Positions 4,063 through 59,523 of a DNA stretch of 64,000 nt are shown here, piece by piece. The notes under the pieces are model-generated. The model was not told where the DNA came from and did not search any database. It worked only from the letters and a program-made list of their open reading frames with translations. Location: assembly GCA_965649205.1 (NCBI GenBank), contig CBFGJV010000006.1, positions 26,015 through 90,014 of the forward strand, read 5' to 3'. Source of the stretch: a candidate division WOR-3 bacterium (GTDB taxonomy: Bacteria > Hydrothermota > Tepidihabitantia > Tepidihabitantales > Tepidihabitantaceae). The translations under genes were made by a program, and so were the position numbers. Position 1 is the stretch's first letter. Each line of letters opens with the position of its first letter.

Positions 4063-5217
4063 TCAGTAAGCTGGCGTTGCCCAGCGCACCACAGTCTCAA
4101 ACGCTTTTTGTAGCCAGGGGGCCTGCTGTTGCAGGATTGACGCCCCAGTTCCCAGCAGCACTACGGCGGTAATGAAAACAATCAGCCAGAAACGGATAAA
4201 GTCCTCTCCCTTGAGTGTACCCAGCATCACCGGTTCCGGCCGCAGATAACAGGAGGCCGCGTAAATCTCCTCGCCTATCATGGTATAGTCGCACGCAGCA
4301 ACGAAAAAAGGCAGCTGAGTAGTCTCGGTTGTACCCGCCAGCTGAATCGCCCCTACTGCATGACCGGTTTCAGCCATAATCAGCGACTCGGCGTAGAAGT
4401 AACCCAGCCAGAATATCGCTCCCGGCTTTTCCCGCAGAATAATTCCATCTACTCCGGCAGCGTATCCAAACTGATCAGAAGTCAGGAAGGTAATATTGTC
4501 CGGATTGTAGAAATCCGGCCGACCCATTTCGGTATAGGCTTCCTTGACCGTCTCCTGAGCCGCCGTCATTACTATCGGGTCAGAGTTAGGCACCAAAAGA
4601 CGGGTGGCATATTCCGCTGACTTCATTGCCACCTTGCGCAACAGGGGCAAAGCGGCTATGACCACCATATCCGTGATATAGCCCAGCCCAAAACTGAACA
4701 ATATCGGCCGTCCCATCTCCGTCGCCCGACCCAGGGCTTCATCAATCGCATCCAGACCGGCTATCTTGCGCACGTACATCTTCGCGCCCCTGCGTGCCCG
4801 GTAGATGTAAAAAAGAAACAAAGCAGAAATCGCCAAAGTCAGAACCAATATATTCATACGGCTGGAATTGAACCACTGAGCAGAAGGAACTACCGGTCCG
4901 ACCACAGCACTGGCTACTGAGTCGCCGTCAACAAGCATAAGCACGTAATAGTAATAAGAACTTCCATCCCGCAACGAGGAATCTGTATCAACAATCTCGG
5001 AACTCGCAGCCGGTTCCTCTGCAATCAGTACGAAACCCGTATCTGGTTTCTCTGACCGAAAAATCTTGTATGTTTTTACGGAAACAGATTCGGCGTTCAC
5101 AGCTTCCCATGTCACCAGTATTGCTCTCCCCTGGTCATTGGGATTATCCCTGGCTGAAACGGAAACGGATAATGCCCCCCAAAGGCCCTGCAGGAAGAGC
5201 AGCATAACCGTGAGCAT
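4063..5217 (-). CDS. Hypothetical exported/membrane-anchored protein with an FN3-like N-terminal ectodomain (gene 1 of cluster)
   Basis: 384 aa. Layout is signal peptide, a beta-rich ~110-aa segment (VSVKTYKIFRSEKPD...SSYYYYVLMLVDG), a TM, a ~230-aa domain, then a C-terminal TM. Confidence 0.6.
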   Translation of the reverse strand: MLTVMLLFLQGLWGALSVSVSARDNPNDQGRAILVTWEAVNAESVSVKTYKIFRSEKPDTGFVLIAEEPAASSEIVDTDSSLRDGSSYYYYVLMLVDGDSVASAVVGPVVPSAQWFNSSRMNILVLTLAISALFLFYIYRARRGAKMYVRKIAGLDAIDEALGRATEMGRPILFSFGLGYITDMVVIAALPLLRKVAMKSAEYATRLLVPNSDPIVMTAAQETVKEAYTEMGRPDFYNPDNITFLTSDQFGYAAGVDGIILREKPGAIFWLGYFYAESLIMAETGHAVGAIQLAGTTETTQLPFFVAACDYTMIGEEIYAASCYLRPEPVMLGTLKGEDFIRFWLIVFITAVVLLGTGASILQQQAPWLQKAFETVVRWATPAY

Positions 5218-5273: not shown

Positions 5274-6032
5274 TCAGGCTTTCCGCCCACTATATCCTTC
5301 CGTCCGGTCTGCGGACCTGGCCAGTTCCTCAAATTTCTGCCGCATCTCAGCGTTAATGCGTTGCACCTCTGCGCGCAGACAAGGCCCGGAATTACAGAAA
5401 TCTTTTCTGGGATAAATCGGATCTCCAACCAAAATCTCAATCTCGGTATTGAAAAGGTTTTCGGCCACAGAAAGAAAACCGGTCCAGCACTCCGTCCATA
5501 CTGTAGTCTGAACTACTCGGCCGGCGTACCTCAGATTACGTATATACACCGGCAATACTGGCGCGCCGGTACGTGCCGCCAGATACGCGGCACCGTCCTT
5601 GATATCCCTGACTTGGCCGCTCAGGTTGAAAGTACCCTCCGGGTAAATACCCACACACCCACCCAGCCGCAGAACCTCCATACACCTCCGCACTCCTCCT
5701 ACATTGTACCACGGCTCTCCCGTTTCCACTGGAAACGCATCACATATATTGCGCATTATAAAACGGGAAAAAGGACCCCGAAACCATCGGCTGGAAGCTG
5801 CAAAGAAAAGCCTGGTACGCAGAGCTATCTGCAGTATGACCGAATCTGCCCCATTGAGATGGTTGGCTACAACTATAAATCCTTTCCGCAAGAGCACCGT
5901 AACGCGACCAACCACCCGGACGCGAACACATAAACTGTAGATGACCAAGAGCAGCTGTTTGATACGAGTCCAGACCGTAGCACGCACCAGCTGCAACCGG
6001 GACCGCTCTGAAACAGACATGGACCGCCGCAT
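5274..6032 (-). CDS. plsC: 1-acyl-sn-glycerol-3-phosphate (lysophospholipid) acyltransferase, PlsC family
   Basis: Contains the HX4D motif (ANHLNGADSV) and the YPEGT motif, which together are diagnostic of the LPLAT/PlsC family. Confidence 0.8.
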   Translation of the reverse strand: MRRSMSVSERSRLQLVRATVWTRIKQLLLVIYSLCVRVRVVGRVTVLLRKGFIVVANHLNGADSVILQIALRTRLFFAASSRWFRGPFSRFIMRNICDAFPVETGEPWYNVGGVRRCMEVLRLGGCVGIYPEGTFNLSGQVRDIKDGAAYLAARTGAPVLPVYIRNLRYAGRVVQTTVWTECWTGFLSVAENLFNTEIEILVGDPIYPRKDFCNSGPCLRAEVQRINAEMRQKFEELARSADRTEGYSGRKA

Positions 6033-6132
6033 CTCTTCGCCTTCGCTTCAGTGTACTACTCGCACTCCTGCTGTCAAGATACCCCGACTTGCCTTGACCG
6101 CTTCCCTTGTCGTTGTTACACTGGCACTGATT

Positions 6133-7248
6133 ATGAAAAAAGTATTACCTCTGCTTATACTGATACTGGCTTTTGTTCTGCCAGCCGTACTCTGCAGTGC
6201 CGGGCCTCAGAACCAGTCGTCCCGGGACCAGAATGTCAGTCTGAGCGAATCCCGCCGTACCGCCATCGTCCGAGCCGCCGAACTGGTGAGTCCCTCTGTA
6301 GTTTCGGTAGTCGTGACTCAAGTACAGGTAGTAACCTATGATCCGTTCGCAGGTCTCGGCCTGGATAACTTCTTCCGAGATTTCTTTCCGCCTCGTCAGT
6401 TTCGGCAAGAAGCAAAGTCCATGGGCTCGGGCGTAATAATTTCGGAAGATGGCGACATTATCACCAATGCCCACGTAGTACGCAACGCCACCCAGATAAA
6501 AGTTACTCTGCCTTCAAACCAGGAGTTTGATGCTGAACTGGAAGGCATTGACAACGTCCGGGACCTGGCCCTGCTCAAAGTAAGAGCAAAGAACCTCCCT
6601 TCTGCTCCGCTGGGCAACTCAGATGACCTGATGATAGGAGAGTGGGCGATTGCCTTCGGCAATCCTTTTGGATTTCTGCTGGAAGATGCTCAACCCACTG
6701 TTACGGTTGGCGTCATCTCCGCCCTGCACCGGGATGTAAAGACCGGACACGGCCAGGTTATGTCGGACATGATACAGACAGATGCCGCCATCAACCCGGG
6801 AAACTCTGGCGGCCCCCTGGTTAATGCTGCAGGAGAGGTAATTGGCATAAACACCTTCATTTTTACTCATTCAGGCGGCTCAGAAGGAATTGGCTTTGCC
6901 CGACCCATCAACGACGTAAAACAGTTCGTGGCTGAGGTACGCGGTACCGCCGCTACCCCCCGCTCAATTTCCACCCGACTGGGCTGCTCGGTGGCAAATA
7001 TTGAGTCCCGTCTGCGAGCACGCTTCAACCTCTCCTACGACCGGGGAGTGGTAATTACAGAAGTGTCCAGCAAGGGTATCGCCCAAGCTATGGGACTGGC
7101 GCCCGGTGACGTCATCCTCATGGCCCAAGGCCGGGTGGTGCGAGATGCAGCCAGTTTCCAAAAGATCTATGAAAAACTACCCGCCGTAGTGAATATCGTC
7201 ATAGACCGAGCAGGAGAACAGGCCCGGCTGGTCTATCCCCTGCAATGA
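6133..7248 (+). CDS. htrA: Periplasmic serine endoprotease DegP/HtrA (S1C) with PDZ domain
   Basis: Contains GSGVIISEDGDIITNAHVV (His), DLALLKV (Asp) and GNSGGPLVN (Ser), with a PDZ-like C-terminus. The ORF-track start at 5941 overlaps plsC. The internal MKKVLPLLILILAFVLPAV signal peptide at 6133 is taken as the true start. Confidence 0.85.
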   Translation: MKKVLPLLILILAFVLPAVLCSAGPQNQSSRDQNVSLSESRRTAIVRAAELVSPSVVSVVVTQVQVVTYDPFAGLGLDNFFRDFFPPRQFRQEAKSMGSGVIISEDGDIITNAHVVRNATQIKVTLPSNQEFDAELEGIDNVRDLALLKVRAKNLPSAPLGNSDDLMIGEWAIAFGNPFGFLLEDAQPTVTVGVISALHRDVKTGHGQVMSDMIQTDAAINPGNSGGPLVNAAGEVIGINTFIFTHSGGSEGIGFARPINDVKQFVAEVRGTAATPRSISTRLGCSVANIESRLRARFNLSYDRGVVITEVSSKGIAQAMGLAPGDVILMAQGRVVRDAASFQKIYEKLPAVVNIVIDRAGEQARLVYPLQ

Positions 7249-8543
7249 TAGAACGATACACCACGCCAGAAATGGCCGCGCTCTGGTCTGAGCAGGCCAA
7301 ATTTGAATCCTGGCTGCAGGTAGAAAAGGCAGTAGCCCAGGTGCAGGGCGAACTTGGACTTATCCCCCGTACCGCGGCCCGGGCTATTCAGCGTGCCAGC
7401 TTCAAACTGGAAGAAATAGCAGAATACGAAAAGGAAACAAACCACGATGTTATCGCCTTTGTCCGCAGCGTCGCCCGTAGCATAGGTCAGGCCGGCGCCT
7501 ACGTGCACTATGGCCTCACCTCCTACGACGTCGTGGATACGGCTCTGTCGCTGCGTATACTCGCCGGTCTGAAGGTTGTAAGCAAAGCTCTAGAGGAACT
7601 GCGGCGCCATATCCTTCACCTTGCACGGAAACACCGGCGCACGCCGATGATCGGCCGTACCCACGGCATGCATGCTGAACCTATTACTTTCGGTCTCAAA
7701 TGCCTTTCCTGGTCTGAAGAAGTCGGCCGTAATCTGACCAGACTGCGCCAAGCGGCAGAGGAAATGCGCCATGGCAAACTATCCGGCACAGTTGGAGCCT
7801 ATACCCAGCTTCCCCCCTCCTTTGAGGTTCGCGTTTTGAAGATTCTGAAACTGAAACCAGAGCCTGTATCCACTCAGGTCATTCCCCGTGATCGGCACGC
7901 CTATCTGCTCTGCGTACTCGCATTGGCAGCCACCGGTCTGGAACGGATTGCCACGGAAATCCGCAATCTGCAACGCCCGGAAATTGGCGAACTCGCCGAA
8001 CCTTTCACCCGGGGCCAACGCGGTTCATCTGCTATGCCGCATAAGCAGAATCCCATCATCTGTGAAAGAATCTGCGGCCTCGCTCGCGTTGTACGGGGAC
8101 TTACCGCAGTCGGATATGAAAACATCCCGCTCTGGCACGAACGAGACCTGACTAACTCTGCCCCGGAACGGATTGCCATCCCGGGGGCTTTTTCTCTGGT
8201 TCATTATATCACTCGCAAGCTCTCCGCAGTTATGTACGGACTGGTAGTGAGGCAGGACCGGATGAAAGAAAATCTGGAAGCATCGGGCGGTATTTTTTTC
8301 TCCCAGGGACTGATGCTCGCCCTGGTACGCGCTGGTCTGGATCGGGAAAGCGCCTATAAACTGGTACAGCGATTGGCTTTTGAAGCCCAGGAAACGGGCC
8401 GCCCGTTCACCGAACTGTGTCGTCAGAATCCAGTTATTCTCCAGAAGCTGGGCGAACGCAATCTGGCCCATGTGTTCGACCTGCAACACCTGCTCCGGCA
8501 CGTGGACGTGGTTTACCGTCGAACCGGTCTTACTCGCCGCTGA
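7245..8543 (+). CDS. purB: Adenylosuccinate lyase
   Basis: 432 aa. Has the fumarase/ASL signature GSSAMPHKQNP. The N-terminus MIERYTTPEMAALWSE is typical of PurB. Confidence 0.9.
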   Translation: MIERYTTPEMAALWSEQAKFESWLQVEKAVAQVQGELGLIPRTAARAIQRASFKLEEIAEYEKETNHDVIAFVRSVARSIGQAGAYVHYGLTSYDVVDTALSLRILAGLKVVSKALEELRRHILHLARKHRRTPMIGRTHGMHAEPITFGLKCLSWSEEVGRNLTRLRQAAEEMRHGKLSGTVGAYTQLPPSFEVRVLKILKLKPEPVSTQVIPRDRHAYLLCVLALAATGLERIATEIRNLQRPEIGELAEPFTRGQRGSSAMPHKQNPIICERICGLARVVRGLTAVGYENIPLWHERDLTNSAPERIAIPGAFSLVHYITRKLSAVMYGLVVRQDRMKENLEASGGIFFSQGLMLALVRAGLDRESAYKLVQRLAFEAQETGRPFTELCRQNPVILQKLGERNLAHVFDLQHLLRHVDVVYRRTGLTRR

Positions 8544-8561
8544 ACCTCAGTCTATGCTCTG

Positions 8562-9683
8562 ATGGATGCCGCCATTTCTAACACCGGTCGCTGTCTCATT
8601 GACGGTTCCCGCCTTATCGTCGAGTCCCTGGCTAGGGCTGGGGCTGATACCTTTTTAGGTTATCCGATAACGCCGGCCAATCTCATCTATCAGTACGCAT
8701 TTCGACGCATTCCCCTGGCCATAGCCGCCCCGGACGAAATCACCGCCTTGCAATGGATGGCGGGATTCGCAGCCTGCGGGAGGCTTCCCTTCACCGCCAC
8801 TTCCTACCCCGGTTTCGCCTTGATGGCTGAATCTATTGGCATGTCACATATGATGGAACTACCCATGGTCATAGTGCTAGCCCAACGTCTGGGACCTTCT
8901 ACCGGTAGTGCTACCGACAGTGCCCAAGGCGACCTGTTGCTGGTGCGCGGCCTGCTTTCTGGAGGCTACTCTCTTCCCGTGCTCTGTCCGTCCAGTTTTG
9001 CCGATTGCTGGGAGCTACCAGCTCTGGCTGTGCAGACTGCTCTTCGATTACGCAGCCCGGTCATATTGCTGACTTCCAAGGAGATGGTCATGACGCAGCG
9101 GGACTGGGACCTGTCCAGCTTGACCAGCATCACCCCAGCCAGACGTGATTTCTACTCCGGTTCTGCACCTTATGAAACATATGCTCCCCAGAGTAATCTG
9201 GTTCCTGCCTTCCTGCCTGTAGGCAACTCCTCGCACCAGGTACGTCTAAACGCCTCCACCCACGACACCAGAGGTCTTCCCGGACCTGCCGCGGGACCTG
9301 GTCTGGCTAACGCCTTGCGGCTGGAGAAAAAGGTGAGAAACAATCTGTCCGATTTTACCCGCTTCGATTTGGACGAACAGGCTGGAGCGCAAACAGTCAT
9401 TGTTTCCTGGGACATCACAGCCCTGGCGGCTCGCGAGGCTACCCTGCTCTTGCGCCGTCAAGGCCGGCAGGTGTCTCTGCTCATACCTAAAACACTTCTA
9501 CCTGTTCCCCCTATTTATCTGGAGATTCTGAACCGCTACTCCAGAATTGTGATTGCCGAAGAAAACTTCGGCGGACAGCTGAAGGAAATTATATTTGGCA
9601 CCTATGAACGACCAGGGGTCATACCCGTGAACGCGGTAGGTCGCTTGCTCACTCCGAATGAAATTGCCGAGGCAGCCGCATGA
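8562..9683 (+). CDS. 2-oxoacid:ferredoxin oxidoreductase, alpha subunit (KorA/PorA-like), without a ferredoxin domain
   Basis: Contains GYPITPANLI...FTATSYPGFALMAESIGMSHMMELPMVIVLAQRLGPSTGSATDSAQGDLL. This is the pyrimidine-binding/transketolase-like domain of OFOR alpha. Confidence 0.8.
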   Translation: MDAAISNTGRCLIDGSRLIVESLARAGADTFLGYPITPANLIYQYAFRRIPLAIAAPDEITALQWMAGFAACGRLPFTATSYPGFALMAESIGMSHMMELPMVIVLAQRLGPSTGSATDSAQGDLLLVRGLLSGGYSLPVLCPSSFADCWELPALAVQTALRLRSPVILLTSKEMVMTQRDWDLSSLTSITPARRDFYSGSAPYETYAPQSNLVPAFLPVGNSSHQVRLNASTHDTRGLPGPAAGPGLANALRLEKKVRNNLSDFTRFDLDEQAGAQTVIVSWDITALAAREATLLLRRQGRQVSLLIPKTLLPVPPIYLEILNRYSRIVIAEENFGGQLKEIIFGTYERPGVIPVNAVGRLLTPNEIAEAAA

Positions 9684-10951
9684 ACAACCGGTTTCTATCT
9701 GATGGAGACTTGCCCTTCTGCCCAGGCTGTGGCCACGCTCTTACTGTACGCAACACGGCGAGAGCGCTGGAAAAACTACAACTCGACCCTCTTGATGTGG
9801 TCTTGGTCACTGACATTGGCTGCCATGGCATCATTGATCGTAACTTTCATACCCATACGGTACACGGCATCCACGGTCGCTCGCTTGCCTTGTCCGCAGG
9901 CATAGCCTCCTGCCTGCCAGAAGGCAAGGTAGTCATCGCTTTCTTGGGAGATGGCGGGGCAATCATCGGTCTCCAGCATCTCTTTCAGGCCGCTCACTAC
10001 AACTTTCCCCTTACCGCTGTCGTTTTTAACAACATGCTTTATGGCATGACCGGCGGTCAACCCTCCGGACTTACTCCCTGCGGCTACCGCACGCCTACCC
10101 ACCCCACAGGTACCAGAGAAGCGGGGATTGACCTGTGTCGCTGGTTGCATGCCGCAGGAGCTGCCAGCGTGGAACGGGTCATCTGCCGCGGCGACTTCTC
10201 AGACGCAATTTCCCGGGCCATTTTGACACCCGGGTTTTCGCTCGTGGAAGTGATAGAACAATGTCCTAGCTACGGAATTAAGCACAACCCTGGCCGGTCT
10301 GTGGAAGAACTACTGGATGCCGCCGGCCTCTCCGTAGGTTTATGGCGCAACGAAAATGCCGTACCGACTCGCTTCTCACCCCGGGAAAACCTGGACTCGC
10401 TCCTGCATCTGGAACCCCTTGAGCAGAAGTATACCGCCACTCTGAACCGCCGCATCTCCATACTTGTTGGCGGCTCGGCTGGCGAGGGAGTACAATCTGC
10501 CGCCGAGATGTTCGCTCGTGCGGCCATTTCTTCCGGACTAAGCGCCACCAAACGGGGTTGGTACCCGGTAACTGTCGGCACCGGTTATTCGGCTGCAGAC
10601 ATCGTCATTTCCCCAGAACCAATTCTTTACGCGGGCGTAGTAGTACCGGACCTGGCCGTTCTTACTTCTGAAGACGGCTTCAAACGTTGTGCTTCTACCG
10701 TACGCCCTATGCCTTCCGGGTGGGTACTGCTTGATGATGACCTGCCCGAATTGGAAACCAGAGCCTGTCTAAAACGTGCCCCGCTTCGCCGAACCGCTGG
10801 CCGCCGTCAGGCAGCGTTGTATGCGCTTGCCCTCCTTTTACGCGAACACAAACTGTTTCCCCTTTCCGCCCTGCTGGAGGCACACAAACACAGCAAACTC
10901 GCAACTAAATTGGATCTGACCCGTCTTCTCTCTGCAGAGGAGAACGTATGA
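9680..10951 (+). CDS. 2-oxoacid:ferredoxin oxidoreductase beta subunit (TPP-binding) fused to a gamma-like C-terminal domain
   Basis: The N-terminus has CPGCGH...IGCHG...FLGDGG (TPP/Fe-S binding). The C-terminal ~170 aa (ILVGGSAGEGVQSAAEMFARAA...YPVTVGTGYSAADIVISPEPI) resembles the OFOR gamma subunit. It overlaps the alpha gene by 4 nt. Confidence 0.75.
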   Translation: MNNRFLSDGDLPFCPGCGHALTVRNTARALEKLQLDPLDVVLVTDIGCHGIIDRNFHTHTVHGIHGRSLALSAGIASCLPEGKVVIAFLGDGGAIIGLQHLFQAAHYNFPLTAVVFNNMLYGMTGGQPSGLTPCGYRTPTHPTGTREAGIDLCRWLHAAGAASVERVICRGDFSDAISRAILTPGFSLVEVIEQCPSYGIKHNPGRSVEELLDAAGLSVGLWRNENAVPTRFSPRENLDSLLHLEPLEQKYTATLNRRISILVGGSAGEGVQSAAEMFARAAISSGLSATKRGWYPVTVGTGYSAADIVISPEPILYAGVVVPDLAVLTSEDGFKRCASTVRPMPSGWVLLDDDLPELETRACLKRAPLRRTAGRRQAALYALALLLREHKLFPLSALLEAHKHSKLATKLDLTRLLSAEENV

Positions 10952-11027
10952 GTCAGAAAGCCTTTGTTTGCCTGCGTCAGTACGGTTTTTCGTTTTATTT
11001 AATCCTAAACAATAATCAGGAGGACTT

Positions 11028-12227
11028 ATGATAGACTTCTCTTTCACTGAAGAACAGAAGTTTGTACAAGACTTGGCGCGCAAGTGGGCCCAAGCCGAGG
11101 TGCTGCCTCTAATTCAGGAAAAAGACCAGAAAGCCGAATTCGACCCTGCGTTTCTTCGCGGCATGGCGGCGCTGGGGTTGCTGGGCCTTTCCCTGCCCTC
11201 AAGGTATGGCGGCATCGGCAATGACTATATCGCCCTAGGCTTGGCCTGCGAAGAACTGGAGTATGTTGATACCTCCCTGCGCGTCATTCTCTCGGTCCAC
11301 ATCGGACTAAACAGTCTCACCCTGCTCTCCTGGGCAACGGAAGAGCAGAAACAGCGCTGGCTGGTGCCACAGGCCAAAGGGGAAAAACTGGGCACCTTTG
11401 GTCTTACGGAACCTGCAGCTGGCAGCGACGCTCTCGGTATCCAGTGCACCGCCCGCAAAGACGGCACTGACTATGTGATCAGCGGCGAAAAAATGTGGAT
11501 TTCTCTGGCTGACATTGCCGACCATTTCATAATCCTTGCCTGGACCGATGCAGAAAAAAAGCAACGCCGCGACCACACGGGCATGTCTGCTTTTCTTCTC
11601 GAACGAGGTATGAAGGGCCTTTCAACAGCCACCATACACGGCAAATTGGGAGTGCGGGCGGGAAACACCGGTTCCATCGCCCTGGACGAGGTCCGCGTAC
11701 CAAAGGAAAACATCTTAGGCCAGGAGGGTGAAGGATTCCGCATCGCCATGTTTGCCATAGACCAGGGCCGCTACACCGTAGCCGCCGGCTCTACTGGCCT
11801 GATTCGCGCCTGCCTTGATGCATCAGTAGAATACGCTCAGACTCGCACCACCTTCGGCCGCCCCATAGCAGAGCATCAACTTATCAAAGAGATGATAGCG
11901 GAAATGGCTTCCGACTACGAAGCTGCCCGATTGCTCTGGCTAAAAGCCGGGTGGCTTAAGAACGAAGGACGGCGCAATACCCGCGAAACATCACTTGCCA
12001 AGATGTACGCCTGCCAGTGTGCGGAAAAAGCCGCTTCCAACGCGGTCCAGATTCATGGCGCCTATGGCTTCTCCAACGAATACAACGTGGAACGCTTCTA
12101 TCGCAACGCCAAAGGCGCACAGATATACGAAGGTTCGCGGGAAATACACAAACTCCTGCAAGCTGACTATGCACTCGGCTTGCGCCAGGATAAGCCCACC
12201 CGCTGCACACTGCCCAAACCTGAATAG
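11028..12227 (+). CDS. acd: Acyl-CoA dehydrogenase
   Basis: 399 aa. Contains GLTEPAAGSDA, YEGSREIHKLL and QIHGAYGFSNEYNVERFYRNAK, typical of the ACAD family. An AGGAGG SD lies 5 nt upstream. Confidence 0.9.
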   Translation: MIDFSFTEEQKFVQDLARKWAQAEVLPLIQEKDQKAEFDPAFLRGMAALGLLGLSLPSRYGGIGNDYIALGLACEELEYVDTSLRVILSVHIGLNSLTLLSWATEEQKQRWLVPQAKGEKLGTFGLTEPAAGSDALGIQCTARKDGTDYVISGEKMWISLADIADHFIILAWTDAEKKQRRDHTGMSAFLLERGMKGLSTATIHGKLGVRAGNTGSIALDEVRVPKENILGQEGEGFRIAMFAIDQGRYTVAAGSTGLIRACLDASVEYAQTRTTFGRPIAEHQLIKEMIAEMASDYEAARLLWLKAGWLKNEGRRNTRETSLAKMYACQCAEKAASNAVQIHGAYGFSNEYNVERFYRNAKGAQIYEGSREIHKLLQADYALGLRQDKPTRCTLPKPE

Positions 12228-12239
12228 AGAGGAGCAGAA

Positions 12240-12428
12240 ATGCCGGTCATATATCTGAAGTCTGGCGGCAGCGTGACCTGCGCCGCCTACACTCTCAAGG
12301 AAGGAATGATCCGCGCTGTAGACGTAAAGTTCAACGACGTACCCGGCATCCCGGAAGAAAAGTCAACCATGAGCAATGCGGACGTTTCTCCGGCTAACAT
12401 ACTATATATATTGCCGGGCAAGGTATAA
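12240..12428 (+). CDS. Small hypothetical protein (62 aa)
   Basis: Strong AGGAG SD 6 nt upstream of the ATG and 12 nt after the acd stop. No recognisable motif. Confidence 0.4.
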   Translation: MPVIYLKSGGSVTCAAYTLKEGMIRAVDVKFNDVPGIPEEKSTMSNADVSPANILYILPGKV

Positions 12429-12466
12429 CCGCACAACTCTCGGATTCATACCTCCTTTATGACTGA

Positions 12467-13579
12467 ATGAGCGCTACGTCCCCTCGCGTTCTGGTACGCC
12501 GGGTGGGCGACTTGGCGAATGCCGTCGACGAAGCCTTGGACTTTATCGGCTACGACTTTGCCGGCAAGAAGGTATGGGTCAAACCTAACCTGCTGGGCCC
12601 TCACCCGCCAGAACGGTCAGTTACCACCGCACCAGAACTTGTCCGTCATGTTGTCCGTGCTCTCCGCGCTCGCCAAGCTACAGAAATCTGGGTAGCAGAC
12701 AATCCGGCTGGAGGACTTCAACGTCACATCGCCGAATACCTTGCCCCTACGGGCGTAGTCCAGGCTAGCGAAGGCTGTTTTCGCAGCATATCTGAAACGC
12801 CCGTCACGCTGCGACTGCAATCCCGCTTTATTCCTGAGATAGTAGTTTCCCGCATCATCACTGAAGCAGATGTCATTCTCAATCTCCCCGTGTTCAAAAC
12901 CCATGCCCTCACTATACTCACTGGAGCAGTAAAAAACCTGTTTGGCATTATTCCTGGTGGCCAGAAATCTGCCCTGCACATGCTTGCCCGCTCTGGTGAC
13001 GATTTTGGCGAACTTCTGGTTGATATCTACCAGGCTATCCCAATCCCGGTGCTTACAATAATGGATGCGTTACGCGGTATGGACGGCCTCAACGGTCCTT
13101 CTAGCGGACGCGTACTGTCTTTGGGCAGAATCTTATCCTCGCCCGACCCTGCCGCTCTGGATCTGGTAATGGCTAAGCTGGCTGGCGCAGACCCCCAAAG
13201 AATTCCCACGGTAAGAATTGCCGCTCAACGTGGACTTGGCCCTGCTCACCTAAACGAGATAAACTTGGCAGGCGACTGGGAACCGATACGCGGATTCAAA
13301 CTACCTCCGACCCGGCTCGCCACCAGTCTTACAGGCATCTCCTCCCTGCTCGCCTATCCCCTTCTCCGTCGCTGGCCCCTGCTCAAACCCCACCGCTGTA
13401 TCAAATGTAGCCGCTGCACTGATAACTGCCCAGTTAAGGCTATCAAGCTGATCCCCTTTCCCCAAATAGACCGTTCCAGATGCATACTCTGCTATTGTTG
13501 CGCGGAACTATGTCCAGTGAGCGCCATGCATGTCCCCGGTCAATTCCAAGCGCTGGTGCAAAACCTGCTCCGCCGCTAG
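12467..13579 (+). CDS. DUF362-domain protein with a C-terminal 2x[4Fe-4S] ferredoxin domain
   Basis: The C-terminus has CIKCSRCTDNCP and CILCYCCAELCP (two CxxCxxCxxxCP motifs). The N-terminal ~300 aa matches the DUF362 architecture. Confidence 0.7.
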   Translation: MSATSPRVLVRRVGDLANAVDEALDFIGYDFAGKKVWVKPNLLGPHPPERSVTTAPELVRHVVRALRARQATEIWVADNPAGGLQRHIAEYLAPTGVVQASEGCFRSISETPVTLRLQSRFIPEIVVSRIITEADVILNLPVFKTHALTILTGAVKNLFGIIPGGQKSALHMLARSGDDFGELLVDIYQAIPIPVLTIMDALRGMDGLNGPSSGRVLSLGRILSSPDPAALDLVMAKLAGADPQRIPTVRIAAQRGLGPAHLNEINLAGDWEPIRGFKLPPTRLATSLTGISSLLAYPLLRRWPLLKPHRCIKCSRCTDNCPVKAIKLIPFPQIDRSRCILCYCCAELCPVSAMHVPGQFQALVQNLLRR

Positions 13580-13917: not shown

Positions 13918-14847
13918 TCAAACAGAAACCTGGGGAATATCTTTCGGGCGACTTACTGCCAGGTAGATAGCAAAAAGTATGACAACCCCGCCTATCACCT
14001 CCCAAGTTTTGGGCGGTTCTCGCAGCAGAAGCCAGCCCAAAAGCGAAGCCCCGACCGGTTCAAATAGGATGACCATCGCTACCACAGGTGCGGGCAAATA
14101 ACGAAGTGCCCAGTTGAAACTGGTATGACCTATCAATTGAGGACCAAGTCCCAGAAGCAGTATCAACATGTAACTTTTGCCTGAATACCCGACCACAGGC
14201 AAGCCCGCAACCGCCACAACCCCCAATAACAAGAGGGCGGCTACGGTGTACATCACGTAAACATAGCCCACCAGTCCCACCCGCTGTCTCACCCTTCTCC
14301 CCAGGAGAAGATACCCTGCCGCACATACAGCTCCTCCTATAGCCAGAAGATTTCCACTAGTAACAAGACTCGAGCCCAACCCCGGTCCGGCAATGAGAGC
14401 AGCACCCGCAACTCCCATGCCTGTAGCCAGATACAGACGCCAGGAAGTCTTTTCTCGCAAGAACAGGGGTGCAGCTAGAGCGACAAACACGGGGTCCATT
14501 GCCACAAGTACAACCGAACTGGTTATCGACGTACGTCTCAACGACTCTATCCAGAAGGCAAAGTGCAAAGCCAGAAAGACACCTGCGGCAATGGAAAACA
14601 TCCAATCTCTGGCTTGAAACTGTACCCTCATAAGCCGCCATCGTGTCCAGAAAAAAGGAGCAAGAAACAGCGCGGCAACAACCAGCCTGCCCGCCGCTAT
14701 TATCAGTGCCGGAGCTACCACAAGCCGGATTATGATGGCAGCAAAAGAAAGAGTGGTCACTCCTGCGGCCAAAACCAGTCCGGGGTTGACCTGCGCCTTT
14801 TTGTTTGCTGGCACAGTTTGTTCTAGCAAGTTCTGCCCGTCGGTCAA
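13918..14847 (-). CDS. EamA/DMT-family transporter (10 TM)
   Basis: 309 aa with two EamA-like halves, highly hydrophobic. Confidence 0.75.
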   Translation of the reverse strand: MTDGQNLLEQTVPANKKAQVNPGLVLAAGVTTLSFAAIIIRLVVAPALIIAAGRLVVAALFLAPFFWTRWRLMRVQFQARDWMFSIAAGVFLALHFAFWIESLRRTSITSSVVLVAMDPVFVALAAPLFLREKTSWRLYLATGMGVAGAALIAGPGLGSSLVTSGNLLAIGGAVCAAGYLLLGRRVRQRVGLVGYVYVMYTVAALLLLGVVAVAGLPVVGYSGKSYMLILLLGLGPQLIGHTSFNWALRYLPAPVVAMVILFEPVGASLLGWLLLREPPKTWEVIGGVVILFAIYLAVSRPKDIPQVSV

Positions 14848-25199: not shown

Positions 25200-27542
25200 C
25201 TACGGAAGGACTAAGAAACTAACTTCCTCACTAGTATGCCCTGCCGCCAATAATCGCAACCTGTGTTTACCCGGTTCCAGACGCCAGAAGCAAGCATAAG
25301 GAGGCCCAACTACGGCCAATTCTCTTTCATCGAGTATCCATCTTGCTTCAGTAGCGCCGGCAGGTACAACCGCTCTGAAAAGAACTGCCTGAAATTCCCG
25401 GCTAAGGTCGGGGTCAATCTTGAACACATCTCCTTCGTCAGGGAAAAGCACAACCGGCTGTGAGCAAACTGTACGTGCCTGAGTTTGAGTTAAACCCGTC
25501 ACCGGAGGCAACGGCAAACCGTTGTCCGCCATCCAGGCCCAGTACTCCGGAGGATATACCTCATATACCTTATCCTGTATTAACAGATGAACCGAGCAAG
25601 TTTCTCTGGGCAGTCTGGAAGCAATGAATTTTTCCTGTACCGCTGCTGGACAATGTGGACCCGGGATTAAACCAGATTTGGGACACACCGCACACAACAC
25701 TATACCCGGAGGAAGGTCAAATCCGGAAGGCGAGCGTGTTTGCGCTGCCAGCATCACATCACGAAAAAGCGGACCGGCTCCTGTTACGCCCGAAACCCGG
25801 TGCATCGGCGAACCATCAAAGTTTCCCACCCATACACCTACCACATAATCGCGGGTGTAACCTACAGCCCAATTGTCCCGGTAATCCTTGGAGGTACCGG
25901 TTTTAACCGCACAAGGAAAAGGTAATGACAAACATGAGAACTGTCCAAAAGCGGGTGCACGTGCCTGATTATCGCAAAGAATATCTGTCACCAGATAAGC
26001 AGATTGGGGACTGAATACGCGAATCTGCGATCCACCAGTCCGCAATCCTGTTTCTGGTTCCGCATCAGACATTATCACCCGCACCTCTGAAAACTCTCCG
26101 TAGTTTGCCAGAACACGATATGCGTTTACCAGCTCCAGCAAACGTACATCACCCACCCCCAAACTCAGAGCCAAACCATAATAACCAGGTTCCCTCCGCA
26201 AACTGGTCAACCCACACTGACGAAGAACAGTAAGCAGACGGTCAACCCCCAGCTCCTCAGCAAGCCTCACGGCCGGAACATTGTAAGACGAACCAAGTGC
26301 CACCCGGCAACTCACAGGACCGCGAAATTGTCGGTCATAGTTACGGGGCACAAAATCGCCGGCCAGTTCTGCAAAATGGCCAGGCAAGTCAGGTACTATC
26401 GCGGCTGGAGACTTTTCCTGTTCAAATGCAAGGGCGTAAACAAAAGGCTTCAACGCCGAACCTGGCTGCCGCAGGCTCAAGCAAGCATTCACCTGCCCGG
26501 CATCCGGGGAAAAATAATCCCTTGAACCTACCATGGCCAAGACCTCCCCGGTAGCACGATCAAGAACCACGACAGCAGCGTTGGTAACGTGGTAGGAAGC
26601 AAATTGCCGCAGATGCACCTCAACCAAATCCTCACACTGCTGCTGAAGTCGGTAGTCGAGGGTAGTACGGAGCAGACGTTCTCTACCTCGCCAAGCTCCC
26701 TTTGGAAGACCTGTAGAAAGAACAAAATCAACGAAATGAGAGGCTTTGAATGGCCTGCGAGGACGACATGGTGTAATGCTTTCAGCCAACGCCGCCTCAA
26801 AATCAGAAAGTTTTATCCGGCGCCGTGCCAGCAGATTTTCCAAAATCCACCGTTGTCTTCGGCGACACCTTTCAAAGTGACGATATGGGTCACACTCTCC
26901 AGGTGAACGCAGCACTCCAGCCAGGAAACACGCCTGCGCCAGCGACAAACGGTCAGCGCTTCGATTGAAATAGGTCCGGGCAGCAGCATCAATACCATAG
27001 AGTTGGTTACCGAACCAGACCCGATTCACATACGCTTCCAAAATCTCCCGCTTCGACAAATGAAGTTCTAGGCGTATTGCACCAAGCAGTTCGCCCAGTT
27101 TTGTCGCTATTCCCCGTCGCCCAGAATGACGCAGAACACGCACAAGTTGCTGGGTGATAGTTGAACCCCCTGACACTACCCGACCTGCCCGCAGATTTGT
27201 CAGCGTGGCACGCACCAAAGCCAGCAGATCCACTCCACAATGACGCCAGAATCTTCTGTCTTCCGCGACTATTACCGCTTCCACAAACCAAAGACTCACC
27301 TGGTCAAGTTCCACCCAGTGGTTCACGCCATATTCGGAAGAACAGACTTCCCTCAGTGGTTCTCCTCTGCGGTCGGTAACTACCAGTGTAGCCAGTTGCT
27401 CCCCGCGTACGTAGCTGCGGCTCAACGGCAATAACAAGAATAAACCAACGCCCAGCCATAACAGCTGAACTATACTACACCCTACGGCTAGGACTCCGAT
27501 GGTAACTGTGTGCCTAGCTGCGGTAAATTTTACTCTCCTCAC
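25200..27542 (-). CDS. pbpC: Penicillin-binding protein 1C (bifunctional glycosyltransferase/transpeptidase)
   Basis: N-terminal TM, GT51 motifs (EDRRFWRHCGVD, GGSTITQQL), a transpeptidase domain and a C-terminal PBP1C-type extension. Its start codon directly abuts the stop of the alpha-2-macroglobulin gene. Confidence 0.85.
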   Translation of the reverse strand: MRRVKFTAARHTVTIGVLAVGCSIVQLLWLGVGLFLLLPLSRSYVRGEQLATLVVTDRRGEPLREVCSSEYGVNHWVELDQVSLWFVEAVIVAEDRRFWRHCGVDLLALVRATLTNLRAGRVVSGGSTITQQLVRVLRHSGRRGIATKLGELLGAIRLELHLSKREILEAYVNRVWFGNQLYGIDAAARTYFNRSADRLSLAQACFLAGVLRSPGECDPYRHFERCRRRQRWILENLLARRRIKLSDFEAALAESITPCRPRRPFKASHFVDFVLSTGLPKGAWRGRERLLRTTLDYRLQQQCEDLVEVHLRQFASYHVTNAAVVVLDRATGEVLAMVGSRDYFSPDAGQVNACLSLRQPGSALKPFVYALAFEQEKSPAAIVPDLPGHFAELAGDFVPRNYDRQFRGPVSCRVALGSSYNVPAVRLAEELGVDRLLTVLRQCGLTSLRREPGYYGLALSLGVGDVRLLELVNAYRVLANYGEFSEVRVIMSDAEPETGLRTGGSQIRVFSPQSAYLVTDILCDNQARAPAFGQFSCLSLPFPCAVKTGTSKDYRDNWAVGYTRDYVVGVWVGNFDGSPMHRVSGVTGAGPLFRDVMLAAQTRSPSGFDLPPGIVLCAVCPKSGLIPGPHCPAAVQEKFIASRLPRETCSVHLLIQDKVYEVYPPEYWAWMADNGLPLPPVTGLTQTQARTVCSQPVVLFPDEGDVFKIDPDLSREFQAVLFRAVVPAGATEARWILDERELAVVGPPYACFWRLEPGKHRLRLLAAGHTSEEVSFLVLP

Positions 27543-30500
27543 TCACTTAATTTCTAGATACTGCTGACCAGTGTGGCCAAAAACCTCAGGTGTATACATT
27601 TCCTCCACCCGCGTGGGTGGAAGGAAAAATCTGCCGCTTGTAAGCGCTCTAACCCGATAAGTCTCCGTGTGCACACCCTTGGTAAGGTAAGTAGCCACCA
27701 GAAGGTAACGGTCATGGTATGTTTCTTCGTAGTTAAAGCCGCCCCACCACTGTTTGTTCGATTTCGTAGAAAGAGGTTGAGTCTGACGTTCAGTGGCAAA
27801 GGAAGTATTAACTATCTCCCAGCCCGCAGGCAGAGGGTCGTCCAGCACCACAAATATCCGGTCCTGAGCAGTGTGTACTTTCAAAGTTATGATATACTCT
27901 GCTCCGCGTACGTAACCTGATACCTTGCCCACGGGCCTGATAACTTTCTCTACTCGGAATCCCTGATCCTTGGCCTTTAGCTCGCCCTTGCGGGCATAAT
28001 AAAGCCTGAGTCCATAATACATTCTGCCCTGTCCCTTTCTGCTGATGTTTACTGGCAAGGTCGTTTTTGCCAAACTATCAATCGGCAGGAAACGACGAGC
28101 AGTCTTCAACGAACGACCAGAGAATACTGCACTGAGCACGTCTTTACCTGCAATCCTGACTGAAGCTCTGAAATTCGGCCTCTCCTTTTCATACGTGCGG
28201 TAGAAAGTTGCCAACGCATCAAAAACACAGGCATTTTCTTGGGTCGTACGCCAACGGCCAACCCTACGCTCCGCAATCAGCCACCTGACTATTTTCTCTG
28301 CAAACTCAATCTGCCCTTGATGTTCTAGTAGCGCTTGCAGTACCACAGCCGTGGTTCGCACATCTGAATGAAACAGCCATCCTCCTTCTCTTTCTTCCTC
28401 ATAGTGTGCCATAGTCGGCTCGAGCTTGAGTTTGTTATTCATCGCCCGTATAAGATTACTCCTTGCCTCCGCATATACAGACTTAGGAAGCAAAGCTAGC
28501 GTCTTCAACAGGTATGCTTTACCATACACTGACATTTGGTCAACTTGGTCAAGCAAGAAAGGTAGGTGAGATTCTACTTTCTCCCCCCATAGCGCAATTG
28601 CATACACAGCCAGACTGCGGGCAGTGAGATACTCATCTGTTGAATACGGCCAGTCTGTCCCACGTTTACCGTAGTTGAGCCAGTTCGTCAGGTAACTCTT
28701 GCCTCGCTCGCTAACCCGGGAAGCCACTTGGAAACCCTTCTTCTCTGCCAGTGCCAGAACGTACATGGTATAAGCTGAAAGCCAAGGAGAAGGCTTTTCG
28801 TAGGCATAAGACTCGAGGTCTGGCCAGAAGTAAAAGCCGCCAGATTCATCCTGGTATCTGCTTACCACATCCAATTCAGCCTGCACAAACTTACGCAAAG
28901 CCGAGCCCCGCAACTCAGACAAACCAAATTGGTTTATCACATCCTCCCCGACAATAAAAGGCAGTATTTTGCTCATCCGCTGCTCCAGACATTCATAAGG
29001 ATACGTACGCAAGAATTCCAGCCCTCTTTCCAGTCCTGTGAGTCCCGAAGAAGAAACTGCAACCTCCAGCCCCCCGACTCCCGCAAAGACGTCAGGCGGC
29101 ACACTCACCGTCTGTTGTATCACTGAATCCATTGTCTGCTCGTACAGAGCCACTGCTTCTGAAACTACAGAAGGTATTGCTGGCAAAGTTACACGCAACC
29201 TGTCCCTTGCTCCCTCCCCACTCGCCTCAAAGGTAAACTCTGCCTCGCCTGCACCGATACAAAGGTAGTCAAACACAACTTCCACAGGACGGTTCGGCTC
29301 TACTTCCACTTGCCGACTTGTACTGCCATCAATCCTCACTCCCTTGGCAGCTGTTGCTTTCACCGTAACTTTCATCTTCTTGTCAGTGCGATTGTGCACC
29401 ATTACGCCGGCCGAAAAACGGTCCTCAGGCCGTATGAAACGCGGTAAAGAACTCACCAGAAGCAGCGGTTTATTAGTCTGAAACTTGCTTTCGCCCGAAC
29501 CAAACTTGTCAACTGTTGCCGCCACGGCCATTATCTGCCAAGTGGTGAGATTATCTGGCACACGAAAACGGACACGAGCTCTGCCGTTCTCATCGCTTCT
29601 CAAAGACGGTATCCAAAGCGCCGTTTCGAGAAACTTCTGCCGGTAGGCATAATCATACCCACCATCAAGCCCTACCCCATCTAATCCGCCACCACCTGCA
29701 GCCTCACCTTTCTCACCGTAATTGCGCTGACCAATCACATGCAGCCTGGACTCAGCTGTTACCACCGAAAGAGATCGAGAGGCGTAAAACATACTGAACG
29801 GATCCGGCGTCCTGTAGCCAACCAGCTTTAAGACGCCAAGATCAACGACCGCAAGCGATACTTCTGAGCGAACTCCTCTACCTTTCTTGTCCAAGACTTG
29901 CAAGTCAATTTCTACCTCCTGCCCTGGCTGGTACTCGGTCCGCCCCGTTTTCACAACCACCGTCAACTTCTTGGCTTCCGGATCAACTGGCAACTCTACA
30001 TATCCAATCTTGAAGCCCGGTTTACCCAGGTCCTGGCCTTCGTCTCCAAAGCTGTTATAGGCAGTTCTCCCTTTCAGCAGAACTACCGAAACAAATACGT
30101 TGGGAAGATACTCTTCTTTTATCGGTATTCTGATCAAATCCGCATTGCCGCTAATCTCTGTTCCAAAGTAGTCCAGTACCAGCTCCCGCTCAACCGTCAC
30201 CATAGCCTTAACCCCGGTCCACGGTGATTTTACAAGTATCTTCGCAGTATCGCCTGGCTTATAAGCATTCTTATCCCTCACCAACTCAATCAGGTCGTCA
30301 TCTCGTATCATCCACGCAGCTTCGCCCTTGCCTGCAACCCAGAACTCCAGATCGGTTCTCGCAGTATTATTCCGTCTGTCTCTCATTTCACACTTGCACC
30401 AGTATTGACCTGGCTTGTCCGGTCTGAACCACTTGCGCACCGCTTCGGACTCTGTTCTGACCTCGAAAGTGGCTACTTTCTCGTCTACTTTCTCGCTCAA

Positions 30501-46740: not shown

Positions 46741-46762
46741 CGGCGTACGTTTGGGATTTGGT

Positions 46763-47638
46763 CTAGCCACGACAACCGCCCTTTCCGCCGCAGCAACTGC
46801 GCTTGGCCTGCCGCGTTTCAAACATCTCCAGAGACTGTTTCTCTTCAGGCAGGTACAGTTGCAAACGCTGCATCAGCAAATCAAAGTCAACTTTGTGGCC
46901 GTCAAACTCCGGCCCGTCAACACAGGCCAGCCTGGTCTCGCCATCCACCTCCACCCGACATGCGCCGCACATTCCGGTCGCGTCCAGCATAATAGGATTG
47001 AGACTGACAACGGTGGGAATCGCATACGGCTGGGTCAGCTTGGAAACCATTTTCATCATTATCACCGGCCCTACCGCAAATACCCGGTCTACTTTCCTGC
47101 CACGTTCAATCACCGCTTTCAGAGCATCAGTCACAAGACCTTTCTGACCATAACTACCATCATCTGTCATCACTATGAGCTCATCTGAGACTTTTCTCAT
47201 TTCCTCTTCCATCATACGCAGACCGCCATGACGGAAACCGAGTATGGAAACAACGTAGTTTCCCGCTTGCTTCAACCCCCGCGCCACCGGGTAAATCTCC
47301 GGAGTACCCACTCCTCCGGCAACGCACACTACGGTTCCAAAATTTCTGATGTCTGTGGGTCTGCCTAGCGGACCAATGAAGTCAAGAATAGAATCCCCCG
47401 CTTCTAAAGTGCCCAGAAGCTTGGTCGACTTGCCAACTTCCTGAAATACTATGACCACCACCCCCTCATCTGGTCGCAAATCGCCAATAGTTAAAGGGAT
47501 TCTTTCGCCCTGCTCGTGTATACGCAGCACCACAAATTGACCCGGCCTGGCTTTGCGGGCTATTTCTGGTGCCTCCAAATCCATTCTTTTAATACCGGGC
47601 GCCAGAACTTCCTTTCGCAGTATTTTAGTCAAATGCAC
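46763..47638 (-). CDS. nfnA: Ferredoxin-NADP+ reductase-like subunit (NfnA/SudB; PyrK-like, [2Fe-2S])
   Basis: FAD-binding FNR-like fold (RPGQFVVLRI…) and the C-terminal Cys cluster CGACRVEVDGETRLACVDG. Confidence 0.8.
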   Translation of the reverse strand: MHLTKILRKEVLAPGIKRMDLEAPEIARKARPGQFVVLRIHEQGERIPLTIGDLRPDEGVVVIVFQEVGKSTKLLGTLEAGDSILDFIGPLGRPTDIRNFGTVVCVAGGVGTPEIYPVARGLKQAGNYVVSILGFRHGGLRMMEEEMRKVSDELIVMTDDGSYGQKGLVTDALKAVIERGRKVDRVFAVGPVIMMKMVSKLTQPYAIPTVVSLNPIMLDATGMCGACRVEVDGETRLACVDGPEFDGHKVDFDLLMQRLQLYLPEEKQSLEMFETRQAKRSCCGGKGGCRG

Positions 47639-57216: not shown

Positions 57217-57220
57217 GGTT

Positions 57221-59522: not shown

Positions 59523-59523
59523 T

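Follow-up and report, generated by a model that had tools for sequence, protein, structure and literature searches.

A Predicted Delta-less 2-Oxoacid:Ferredoxin Oxidoreductase with Its Gamma Domain on the Beta Chain in a WOR-3 Bacterium, and Its Possible Link to Glutaryl-CoA

The window analysed here is a stretch of 64,000 nucleotides from a candidate division WOR-3 bacterium (GenBank assembly GCA_965649205.1, contig CBFGJV010000006.1, positions 26,015 to 90,014 of the forward strand; positions below are those of the window). Two genes at 8562-10951, on the + strand, almost certainly encode a complete 2-oxoacid:ferredoxin oxidoreductase (OFOR) that, to judge from its sequence, has no delta subunit and a permuted layout, with domains I and II on the alpha chain and domains VI and III on a fused beta-gamma chain; it belongs to one well-conserved family spread over many phyla. 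In anaerobic metabolism, OFORs are key enzymes for the flow of carbon and electrons. This one is standard in fold, cofactors and chemistry, and the permutation of its subunits is real, widespread and uncharacterised, being new only in that no member of the family has been studied. For the locus as a whole, the best explanation, to which we give nearly an even chance, is that the delta-less OFOR produces glutaryl-CoA, that the acyl-CoA dehydrogenase (ACAD) encoded downstream takes it, and that the two genes after ACAD form a WOR-3-specific set with ACAD and do not encode OFOR subunits.

Domain Organisation of the Oxidoreductase

The alpha gene (8562-9683, +) encodes 373 amino acids that comprise domains I and II without a gamma part. 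Pfam finds POR_N at 108 bits and, for domain II, a weak PFOR_II match (20.8 bits against a cut-off of 27), but 1YD7 and 8YS5_A match alpha over its whole length. These two chains, together with residues 216-543 of 6N2N_A, are its closest solved relatives. TIGR03710, a gamma-alpha model of 561 positions, is matched at positions 189-560 only, and since alpha starts at position 189 of the model, the gamma part is missing from it. The YPITP motif lies at residues 34-38, and R109 aligns with Arg344 of StOFOR2 from Sulfolobus tokodaii, which is the arginine that binds the substrate carboxylate (PMC5020499). Across 57 orthologues, both G33-Y-P-I-T-P38 and R109 are kept at 95% or more.

The beta-gamma gene (9680-10951, +; 423 amino acids) overlaps alpha by 4 nucleotides (ATGA). 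Its beta part, domain VI (9680-10354, +), carries the thiamine pyrophosphate (TPP) site and the cysteines for the single, proximal [4Fe-4S] cluster: TPP_enzyme_C is matched at residues 45-191 (94 bits), and none of 22 homologues departs from either the TPP motif GDGG...NN (G90-D-G-G93 and N117-N118) or the four cysteines (Cys14, Cys17, Cys48 and Cys195). These cysteines align with the CxxC, GC and C-P cysteines in the beta chains of StOFOR, of Helicobacter pylori OorB (HpOorB) and of MmOGOR from Magnetococcus marinus, and the equivalent four hold the single [4Fe-4S] cluster of StOFOR (PMC5020499). A linker of variable sequence follows (10355-10453, +; residues ~226-258), with columns that are poorly conserved in the homologue alignment and nearly no secondary structure in the AlphaFold model described below. 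The gene then ends in a gamma part, the CoA-binding domain III (10454-10951, +).

The identification of this last part rests on Pfam (POR/PF01558 at residues 267-365, 31.5 bits against a cut-off of 27.4), on TIGR03710, of which positions 2-117, the gamma part of the model, are matched by residues 259-375, and on predicted structure. An AlphaFold2 model of beta-gamma built on 22 homologues (pLDDT 86) was searched against the PDB with Foldseek. Its N-terminal half matches the OFOR beta chains 8YS5_C, 6N2N_B and 5B46_B; for the C-terminal half, the matches are stand-alone gamma subunits, aligned over ~165-178 columns, which is essentially their full length. The target-normalised TM scores of the gamma half are 0.67-0.74 for 3G2E, 8YS5_B, 9BT4_E/F, 3ON3 and also 2RAA (0.71 for 3G2E, an OorC; 0.74 for 9BT4, a PorC; 0.74 for 3ON3). 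In the family, the gamma part is marked by the motifs GSAGEGVQ and YPVTVG(T/V)G(Y/F)S. Pfam finds no Fer4 domain in either alpha or beta-gamma, and hence no delta.

The sequence features of the OFOR superfamily are present: the TPP domain VI, the four cluster cysteines, domains I and II with YPITP and the arginine, and domain III. As in the characterised two-subunit (alpha-beta)2 OFORs, there is a single cluster and no delta or ferredoxin domain; the gamma domain that these enzymes carry at the alpha N-terminus is here on beta. A reading made from the sequence alone, before any database search, had proposed a stand-alone alpha, a fused beta-gamma and no delta, and Pfam, TIGR03710 and Foldseek bear it out, down to the gamma-like C-terminal domain of the beta gene; the five open reading frames (ORFs) to which it pointed, from alpha to the ferredoxin-bearing gene at 13579, are all where it had placed them, on the + strand.

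Distribution of the Family

At least 399 relatives of beta-gamma turned up among 185,579 species, each represented by a single genome, and 139 clusters (50% identity) at E <= 1e-30 came out of an exhaustive search through 1.84 billion cluster representatives. All of the best 120 database relatives, with lengths of 411-450 amino acids, have both Pfam domains; named sources among them are WOR-3, Bacteroidota (Tenuifilum, Odoribacter), Chloroflexota and others. The family extends, at 45-61% identity, over WOR-3, Bacteroidota, Ignavibacteriota, Chloroflexota, Gemmatimonadota, Spirochaetota, Acidobacteriota and other phyla. For a comparison of loci, 80 OFOR loci of other genomes were fetched, and 8 WOR-3 loci (L081-L088) were added to them. 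In 79 of the 80, alpha directly precedes beta-gamma; the exception is cut off by a contig end. The same ORF of ~420 amino acids is continuous in all 80, so the fusion cannot be put down to a frameshift or to faulty assembly.

A second class of beta-gamma proteins, 470-500 amino acids long (P0438, P0435, P0467) and with one member from Planctomycetota, has the same order of TPP_enzyme_C followed by POR, and in most of these proteins the gamma domain is full and canonical. It matches the ~420-residue family in two separate stretches at 32-44% identity and has longer linkers; its gamma domain scores 96-122 bits in the three best members, as against 31 in the window, and 23-29 in two others. The VorA (477 amino acids) of the Methanothermobacter 2-oxoisovalerate:ferredoxin oxidoreductase (VOR) is presumably a beta-gamma fusion too, and that enzyme presumably has a delta subunit as well. 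A korB-korC fusion is known from archaea, through a survey of fused genes (PMC11237513). The arrangement, which had been called unusual, is therefore not rare. The related statement that gamma is fused to alpha in two-subunit OFORs is correct for those that have been characterised (PMC5020499) and needs a qualification for the sequence databases, where beta-gamma fusions are common.

Gene Neighbourhoods

The neighbours of the OFOR pair were analysed by ORF clustering, Pfam and NCBIfam scans and tblastn, with glutaryl-CoA dehydrogenase (GCDH) counted within 8 kb. In 51 of the 80 loci, the pair has a neighbour that handles acyl-CoA, be it GCDH, a family III CoA-transferase, Ptb/Buk or another ACAD. 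These loci, all from other species, give independent support to the link between OFOR and acyl-CoA dehydrogenase that the sequence-only reading had drawn.

GCDH is found in 19 loci, and its identity is firm: the neighbour scores 447 bits to the Burkholderia GCDH 3EOM and at most 254 to other ACAD classes. It may be transcribed divergently from alpha, share its operon (L033) or lie downstream of the pair, and the taxa that bear it include Bacteroidales, Melioribacter and Ignavibacteriales. In sixteen of the GCDH loci, no CoA-transferase lies within 8 kb. The family III CoA-transferase also occurs in 19 loci, immediately upstream of alpha in most of them and usually with an SSF transporter (itself in 23 loci), and this link recurs across several separate clades and phyla; the best NCBIfam model for the transferase is succinate--glutarate CoA-transferase, with a score of 278 bits that lies under the model cut-off. 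Ptb and/or Buk are present in 8 loci, as BUK-PTB-(SSF)-alpha-beta-gamma operons, and the ACAD of the WOR-3 type in 7.

The operon of locus L033 has the order thiolase, butyryl-CoA dehydrogenase (Bcd)-like ACAD, GCDH, SSF, CoA-transferase, alpha, beta-gamma. Like L033, locus L030 has an extra Bcd-like ACAD and a thiolase, and this second ACAD has Ala at the position of the GCDH arginine in both. In two Bacteroidales loci with GCDH, L030 (3239-4003) and L021 (from 3248), a carbon-nitrogen hydrolase gene lies ahead of the SSF-CoA-transferase-OFOR operon; it may provide an amidase step in the same catabolic route.

Throughout these context groups, two stretches of the beta active site hardly vary: VTDIGCHGIIDxxFxTHTVHGLHGRS and HNNMLYGMTGGQPS. 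This suggests one substrate class with differing downstream fates. Among 94 upstream and 125 downstream neighbours scanned with Pfam, no ferredoxin or delta gene recurs beside the pair. Five downstream neighbours match Fer4 and four carry DUF362, which are taken to be four of those five. The same scans found no tricarboxylic acid (TCA)-cycle genes that recur beside the pair.

The Acyl-CoA Dehydrogenase, orf62 and DUF362-Fd

In the window, beta-gamma is followed, after a gap of 76 nucleotides with an AGGAGG ribosome-binding site, by the ACAD gene (11028-12227, +; 399 amino acids), the product of which has all four ACAD Pfam domains. Its second-best NCBIfam model is the glutaryl-CoA dehydrogenase Acd. 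In its motif VDTSLRV, the arginine aligns with that of the Thermus thermophilus GCDH 2EBA (VDSGLRS), a position occupied by Gly or Ala in Bcd-type enzymes; it presumably corresponds to the gamma-carboxylate-binding Arg94 of human GCDH. The motif is invariant in 15 of 15 WOR-3 orthologues, whether or not an OFOR is adjacent. The motifs TEPNxGSDP and TYEGTHD of GCDH are absent. The enzyme is thus GCDH-like in its arginine and outside the GCDH family in overall similarity. No genes for an electron-transfer flavoprotein (ETF) were found among the 43 further ORFs of at least 150 amino acids in the window.

The next gene, orf62 (12240-12428, +), encodes a small conserved protein of 62 amino acids, with 21 invariant positions in 9 orthologues of 43-85% identity. 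A profile search gave 80 proteins, mostly of 57-63 amino acids (five shorter ones, of 34-42, look truncated); none has a Pfam domain, and all of those with an organism name are from WOR-3. On this conservation, orf62 is a real small protein, confined to WOR-3 and always directly after ACAD. The third gene, DUF362-Fd (12467-13579, +; 370 amino acids), joins a DUF362 domain (PF04015, 150 bits against a cut-off of 24, residues 36-236) to a C-terminal 2x[4Fe-4S] ferredoxin domain, which is matched by Fer4 families and which has eight invariant cysteines in two CxxCxxCxxxCP motifs (residues ~304-356). In Foldseek searches with a predicted structure (pLDDT 89), this tail matches dicluster ferredoxins, and the first ~280 residues match the Thermotoga maritima protein 4NAR and the LarA family (4NAR and the LarA-family structures 9Q3J, 2YJG and 5HUQ, TM scores 0.36-0.43, E 5e-6 to 8e-4). 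DUF362 and the DUF2088 of LarA share the Pfam clan CL0471 (PMC11770544); in the literature searched, DUF362 appears only as an outgroup for LarA.

The order purB-alpha-beta-gamma-ACAD-orf62-DUF362Fd is found in only 7 of the 80 loci, all WOR-3-like and two of them cut short, and tblastn places DUF362-Fd beside the OFOR in six, again all WOR-3-like. The eight further WOR-3 loci, which were fetched through homologues of DUF362-Fd or orf62 (L083 and L085 repeat L082 and L084), help to separate the two parts of the cluster. L081 has the full set, OFOR included. In L082-L088, purB lies directly before ACAD, with a 4-nucleotide overlap, and an ORF of the orf62 kind comes next, without an OFOR in between; DUF362-Fd is present in L082-L085 and L088 and absent from L086 and L087. 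Throughout L081-L088, the small ORF follows ACAD at a distance of 3-27 nucleotides, and the order htrA-purB-(OFOR)-ACAD is shared by L001, L003, L051 and L081-L088, with ACAD always after purB. ACAD and the ORF of ~60 amino acids, together with DUF362-Fd in most genomes, look like a lineage-specific core gene set; orf62 and DUF362-Fd are a WOR-3-specific set with ACAD and not subunits of the OFOR.

The Substrate and the Rival Explanations

The proposal made here for the substrate is based on the fact that it best unifies the gene contexts, namely GCDH, CoA-transferase, Ptb/Buk and the Arg-type ACAD. It is possible, and we tentatively favour the view, that the enzyme acts preferentially on 2-oxoadipate, or on some other dicarboxylic 2-oxoacid of C5-C6, and yields glutaryl-CoA. 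With slightly more reserve, the alpha/beta-gamma family may be put forward as a dedicated 2-oxoadipate:ferredoxin oxidoreductase, an anaerobic counterpart of the 2-oxoadipate dehydrogenase complex; no such oxidoreductase was found in the literature searched. TPP at the alpha/beta interface would decarboxylate the 2-oxoacid, as in the established single-cluster OFORs, CoA held by domain III would accept the acyl group, and a free ferredoxin, the gene for which lies elsewhere, would receive the two electrons one by one through the single cluster. The fate of glutaryl-CoA would vary with the lineage, from oxidation by GCDH to CoA transfer by the family III enzyme or conversion by Ptb/Buk to the acid and ATP. 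In the window, the Arg-bearing ACAD downstream would take it.

Several observations weigh against this proposal. The assignment is an indirect one, drawn from gene context, and a neighbour-joining tree shows the contexts to be largely clade-specific, so that the loci are far from independent observations and their counts overstate independence. A context with a CoA-transferase fits an OFOR that supplies succinyl-CoA from 2-oxoglutarate equally well, and Ptb and Buk are known to act on C4-C5 monocarboxylic acyl-CoAs and are not known to act on glutaryl-CoA. Within the beta pocket, Ile51 and Met123 are hydrophobic, and sequence alignments revealed no family-specific basic residue for the distal carboxylate. 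The closest solved relatives of the window ACAD are butyryl-CoA dehydrogenases (4L1F, 297 bits; 5OL2_C, 291 bits), ahead of the GCDH-type structures 3MPI (262 bits) and 3EOM (244 bits); its score with the Acd model is 307.8 against a cut-off of 470, and it lies under every NCBIfam cut-off. Finally, in WOR-3 genomes without an OFOR at the site, an ACAD of the same Arg type and with the same motif adjoins purB, and the WOR-3 block also holds genes as unrelated as htrA, purB and uvrB, so that in WOR-3 the proximity of OFOR and ACAD counts for little.

Another possibility is that the enzyme is an ordinary 2-oxoglutarate:ferredoxin oxidoreductase (KOR; KorAB), with succinyl-CoA made or consumed in a branched TCA cycle and, in Bacteroidota, fed to the CoA-transferase that activates glutarate for GCDH. 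This would account for the database name of the homologues (2-oxoglutarate ferredoxin oxidoreductase subunit beta), for the presence of OorA and OorB among the best named NCBIfam models, for the best solved matches, which are to HpOorDABC and MmOGOR, and for the resemblance of the neighbouring CoA-transferase to succinate--glutarate CoA-transferase. It is nevertheless quite improbable. The scores with the corresponding equivalogs are far under their cut-offs (151.6 against 579 bits for PRK09627, OorA; 107.2 against 364 for PRK09628, OorB). Lys49b lines the substrate pocket of StOFOR1, and its replacement in K49bI abolishes the activity with 2-oxoglutarate while that with pyruvate is kept (PMC5020499); this position is Lys in StOFOR and Arg in HpOorB and MmOGOR, all of which use 2-oxoglutarate, and it is Ile51 in the window family, at least 90% conserved. 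Moreover, the 16 GCDH loci that have no CoA-transferase nearby, like the want of recurrent TCA-cycle neighbours, are not what this explanation leads one to expect, and as succinyl-CoA is no substrate for an ACAD, the WOR-3 arrangement would be a coincidence. The hydrophobic pair Ile51 and Met123, for which Ile843 of the pyruvate-specific DaPFOR offers a parallel, would suit instead an OFOR of broad specificity or one for branched or short-chain substrates (VOR-like), active in amino-acid fermentation, whose acyl-CoA yields ATP through Ptb/Buk or goes to a short- or branched-chain ACAD. Such an enzyme comes close to what the sequence-only reading had in mind, and both the eight operons with BUK and PTB and the overall proximity of the window ACAD to butyryl-CoA dehydrogenases speak for it. 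It too is unlikely: the commonest ACAD neighbour is the glutaryl-CoA-specific GCDH, the arginine of the window ACAD is atypical for short- and branched-chain ACADs, the near-invariance of the active site across contexts speaks against clade-specific substrates, and the VOR equivalogs are missed by a wide interval (128 against 399 bits for PRK07119, VorB; 53.3 against 405 for PRK11864, VOR-beta). By these scores, the window OFOR is not a demonstrable member of either the KOR or the VOR group. A reading of the substrate from alpha was dropped: the residue after GPSTG-x-x-T is Lys or Arg in the M. marinus, H. pylori and S. tokodaii enzymes, is Asp in the window and is variable in the family.

The other alternatives concern the composition of the cluster. 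DUF362-Fd had been suggested as the electron acceptor or carrier of the OFOR, in place of the missing delta. The two genes do share a co-directional cluster, and the ferredoxin tail bears a weak likeness to PorD/KorD (TIGR02179, 25.4 bits, E 1e-5); this score is under the cut-off of 60 bits and is what any dicluster ferredoxin would be expected to give. The characterised single-cluster OFORs reduce free ferredoxin directly (PMC5020499), so a delta-less OFOR needs no built-in ferredoxin. Most of DUF362-Fd has a LarA-like fold of catalytic type, the protein has the OFOR as a neighbour in no more than a handful of the 80 loci, each of them among the seven WOR-3-like ones, with no ferredoxin gene recurring in the others, and ACAD-orf62-DUF362Fd is kept in four of the six other WOR-3 arrangements, which have no OFOR at the site; the suggestion is therefore highly improbable. 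It is also very doubtful, if a little less so, that the Arg-type ACAD, orf62 and DUF362-Fd make up an ETF-independent electron-transfer system for a glutaryl-type ACAD, in which DUF362-Fd would be either the redox partner or a coupled 2-hydroxyacid/2-oxoacid enzyme. Lastly, there may be no functional module at all, the OFOR pair being merely inserted, or ancestral, in a WOR-3 housekeeping block and the OFOR and ACAD acting in unrelated pathways. The conservation of htrA-purB-ACAD-orf62-(DUF362Fd)-uvrB with or without the OFOR, the overlap between purB and ACAD where the OFOR is absent and the stronger conservation of ACAD (72-83% identity in WOR-3) than of purB (50-69%) would all follow from this. 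We nonetheless regard it as somewhat unlikely: the OFOR family is tied independently to ACADs and acyl-CoA enzymes in other phyla, the arginine of the ACAD fits a glutaryl-type substrate, and the OFOR occupies the exact slot just upstream of ACAD in all nine WOR-3 loci that have it there. The earlier description of the cluster as a compact fermentation unit was, in any case, too strong for genes embedded in a WOR-3 block of conserved order with htrA, purB and uvrB.

Surrounding Genes

The cluster is the downstream part of a tight co-directional run of genes on the + strand, 5941-13579, from htrA to DUF362-Fd. The run begins with an htrA-like protease gene (5941/6133-7248, +; Trypsin_2 match), which is overlapped by 4 nucleotides by purB (7245-8543, +; Lyase_1 and ADSL_C matches). 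Both are probably co-transcribed with the cluster, as parts of the same conserved WOR-3 block, and are probably unrelated to it in function. A consensus scan of the cluster gave no convincing internal promoter or terminator and does not define the operon boundaries. The next gene after DUF362-Fd encodes an EamA transporter (13918-14847) and is convergent to the cluster. As listed, the htrA ORF starts at 5941 and overlaps a divergent gene (5274-6032); its true start is likely to be Met65 (~6133), which opens the signal-peptide-like MKKVLPLLILILAF, and a promoter-like match lies at 6094-6122, ahead of that start. The divergent gene is acyltransferase-like, and directly downstream of it, on the - strand, is a gene for a protein of 384 amino acids with a strong DUF6754 match (4063-5217, -; 358 bits).

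Elsewhere in the window, two gene groups point to a ferredoxin-based metabolism. At 45373-47638 (-), a GltD/NfnB-like gene (Fer4_20 and Pyr_redox_2, 482 amino acids) adjoins an NfnA-like gene (DHODB_Fe-S_bind, 291 amino acids), and, from these domains, the pair is probably a ferredoxin:NAD(P) oxidoreductase of the NfnAB type. At 56308-61002 (+), genes for a CCG-domain (HdrB-like) protein, an FAD/Pyr_redox_2 protein and the small (Oxidored_q6) and large (NiFeSe_Hases) subunits of a [NiFe]-hydrogenase stand in a row, an arrangement that resembles, in its domain content, an Mvh/Hdr-like cytoplasmic [NiFe]-hydrogenase cluster. A third region (25200-33197, -) encodes a bacterial alpha-2-macroglobulin (A2M) of 1884 amino acids, with MG domains, bait region and TED, next to an ORF of 780 amino acids; the latter is the most likely origin of the transglycosylase and transpeptidase matches in a pooled scan, and the two would then form a classic A2M-PBP1C pair.

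Significance and Comparison with Known Systems

The physiological role of the alpha/beta-gamma family is probably mis-annotated. Metabolic reconstructions label nearly all two-gene OFORs as KorAB and read a step of the TCA cycle from them; if the substrate were 2-oxoadipate or another 2-oxoacid from outside that cycle, many published reconstructions would mis-assign the step, and an oxygen-independent route from lysine or 2-aminoadipate through glutaryl-CoA to butyrate would gain its missing enzyme. No characterised two-subunit OFOR has this layout, although several hundred species or more do. The permutation into I-II plus VI-III tests, by a natural example, how much freedom there is in the way OFOR domains are joined. 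The separate, WOR-3-specific set of ACAD, orf62 and DUF362-Fd is worth study by itself.

Among the closest known systems are StOFOR1 and StOFOR2 (5B46-5B48) and MmOGOR (6N2N), which, like the window OFOR, consist of domains I, II, III and VI encoded by two genes, with one [4Fe-4S] cluster on the same four cysteines (PMC5020499), with YPITP and the carboxylate-binding arginine and without a delta or ferredoxin domain. They differ in carrying domain III at the alpha N-terminus (III-I-II plus VI) instead of the beta C-terminus and in having Lys or Arg where the window family has Ile; the identity between the window beta and the solved beta chains is ~20-30% in structural alignments. The H. pylori enzyme OorDABC (8YS5) shares the stand-alone I-II alpha; its chain 8YS5_C is the best solved match to the beta part (E 2.5e-24), and its chain 8YS5_B matches the gamma part well in fold. 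In contrast to the window OFOR, its OorC is separate, it has OorD with 2x[4Fe-4S], it has Arg at the Lys49b position and it is specific for 2-oxoglutarate.

The 2-oxoadipate dehydrogenase complex belongs to an unrelated class, being a lipoate- and NAD-dependent, oxygen-tolerant multienzyme assembly. If the substrate assignment is right, its E1a/DHTKD1-type dehydrogenase and the window OFOR would carry out the same net reaction upstream of GCDH (2-oxoadipate + CoA -> glutaryl-CoA + CO2), and the analogy is one of function only. As for the ACAD, its comparison with the glutaryl-CoA dehydrogenases, both decarboxylating (GCDHs such as 3EOM, 2EBA and 1SIQ) and non-decarboxylating (Acd of Desulfococcus, 3MPI), shows an arginine at the GCDH position, in the helix motif VD(T/S)xLR, and a greater overall similarity to the butyryl-CoA dehydrogenases. 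DUF362-Fd is of the same fold class as the LarA superfamily of nickel-pincer-nucleotide 2-hydroxyacid racemases and epimerases (TM ~0.4, 11-17% identity), a comparison that concerns the fold and not the cofactor residues, and it has a 2x[4Fe-4S] domain in the place of the C-terminal domain of LarA.

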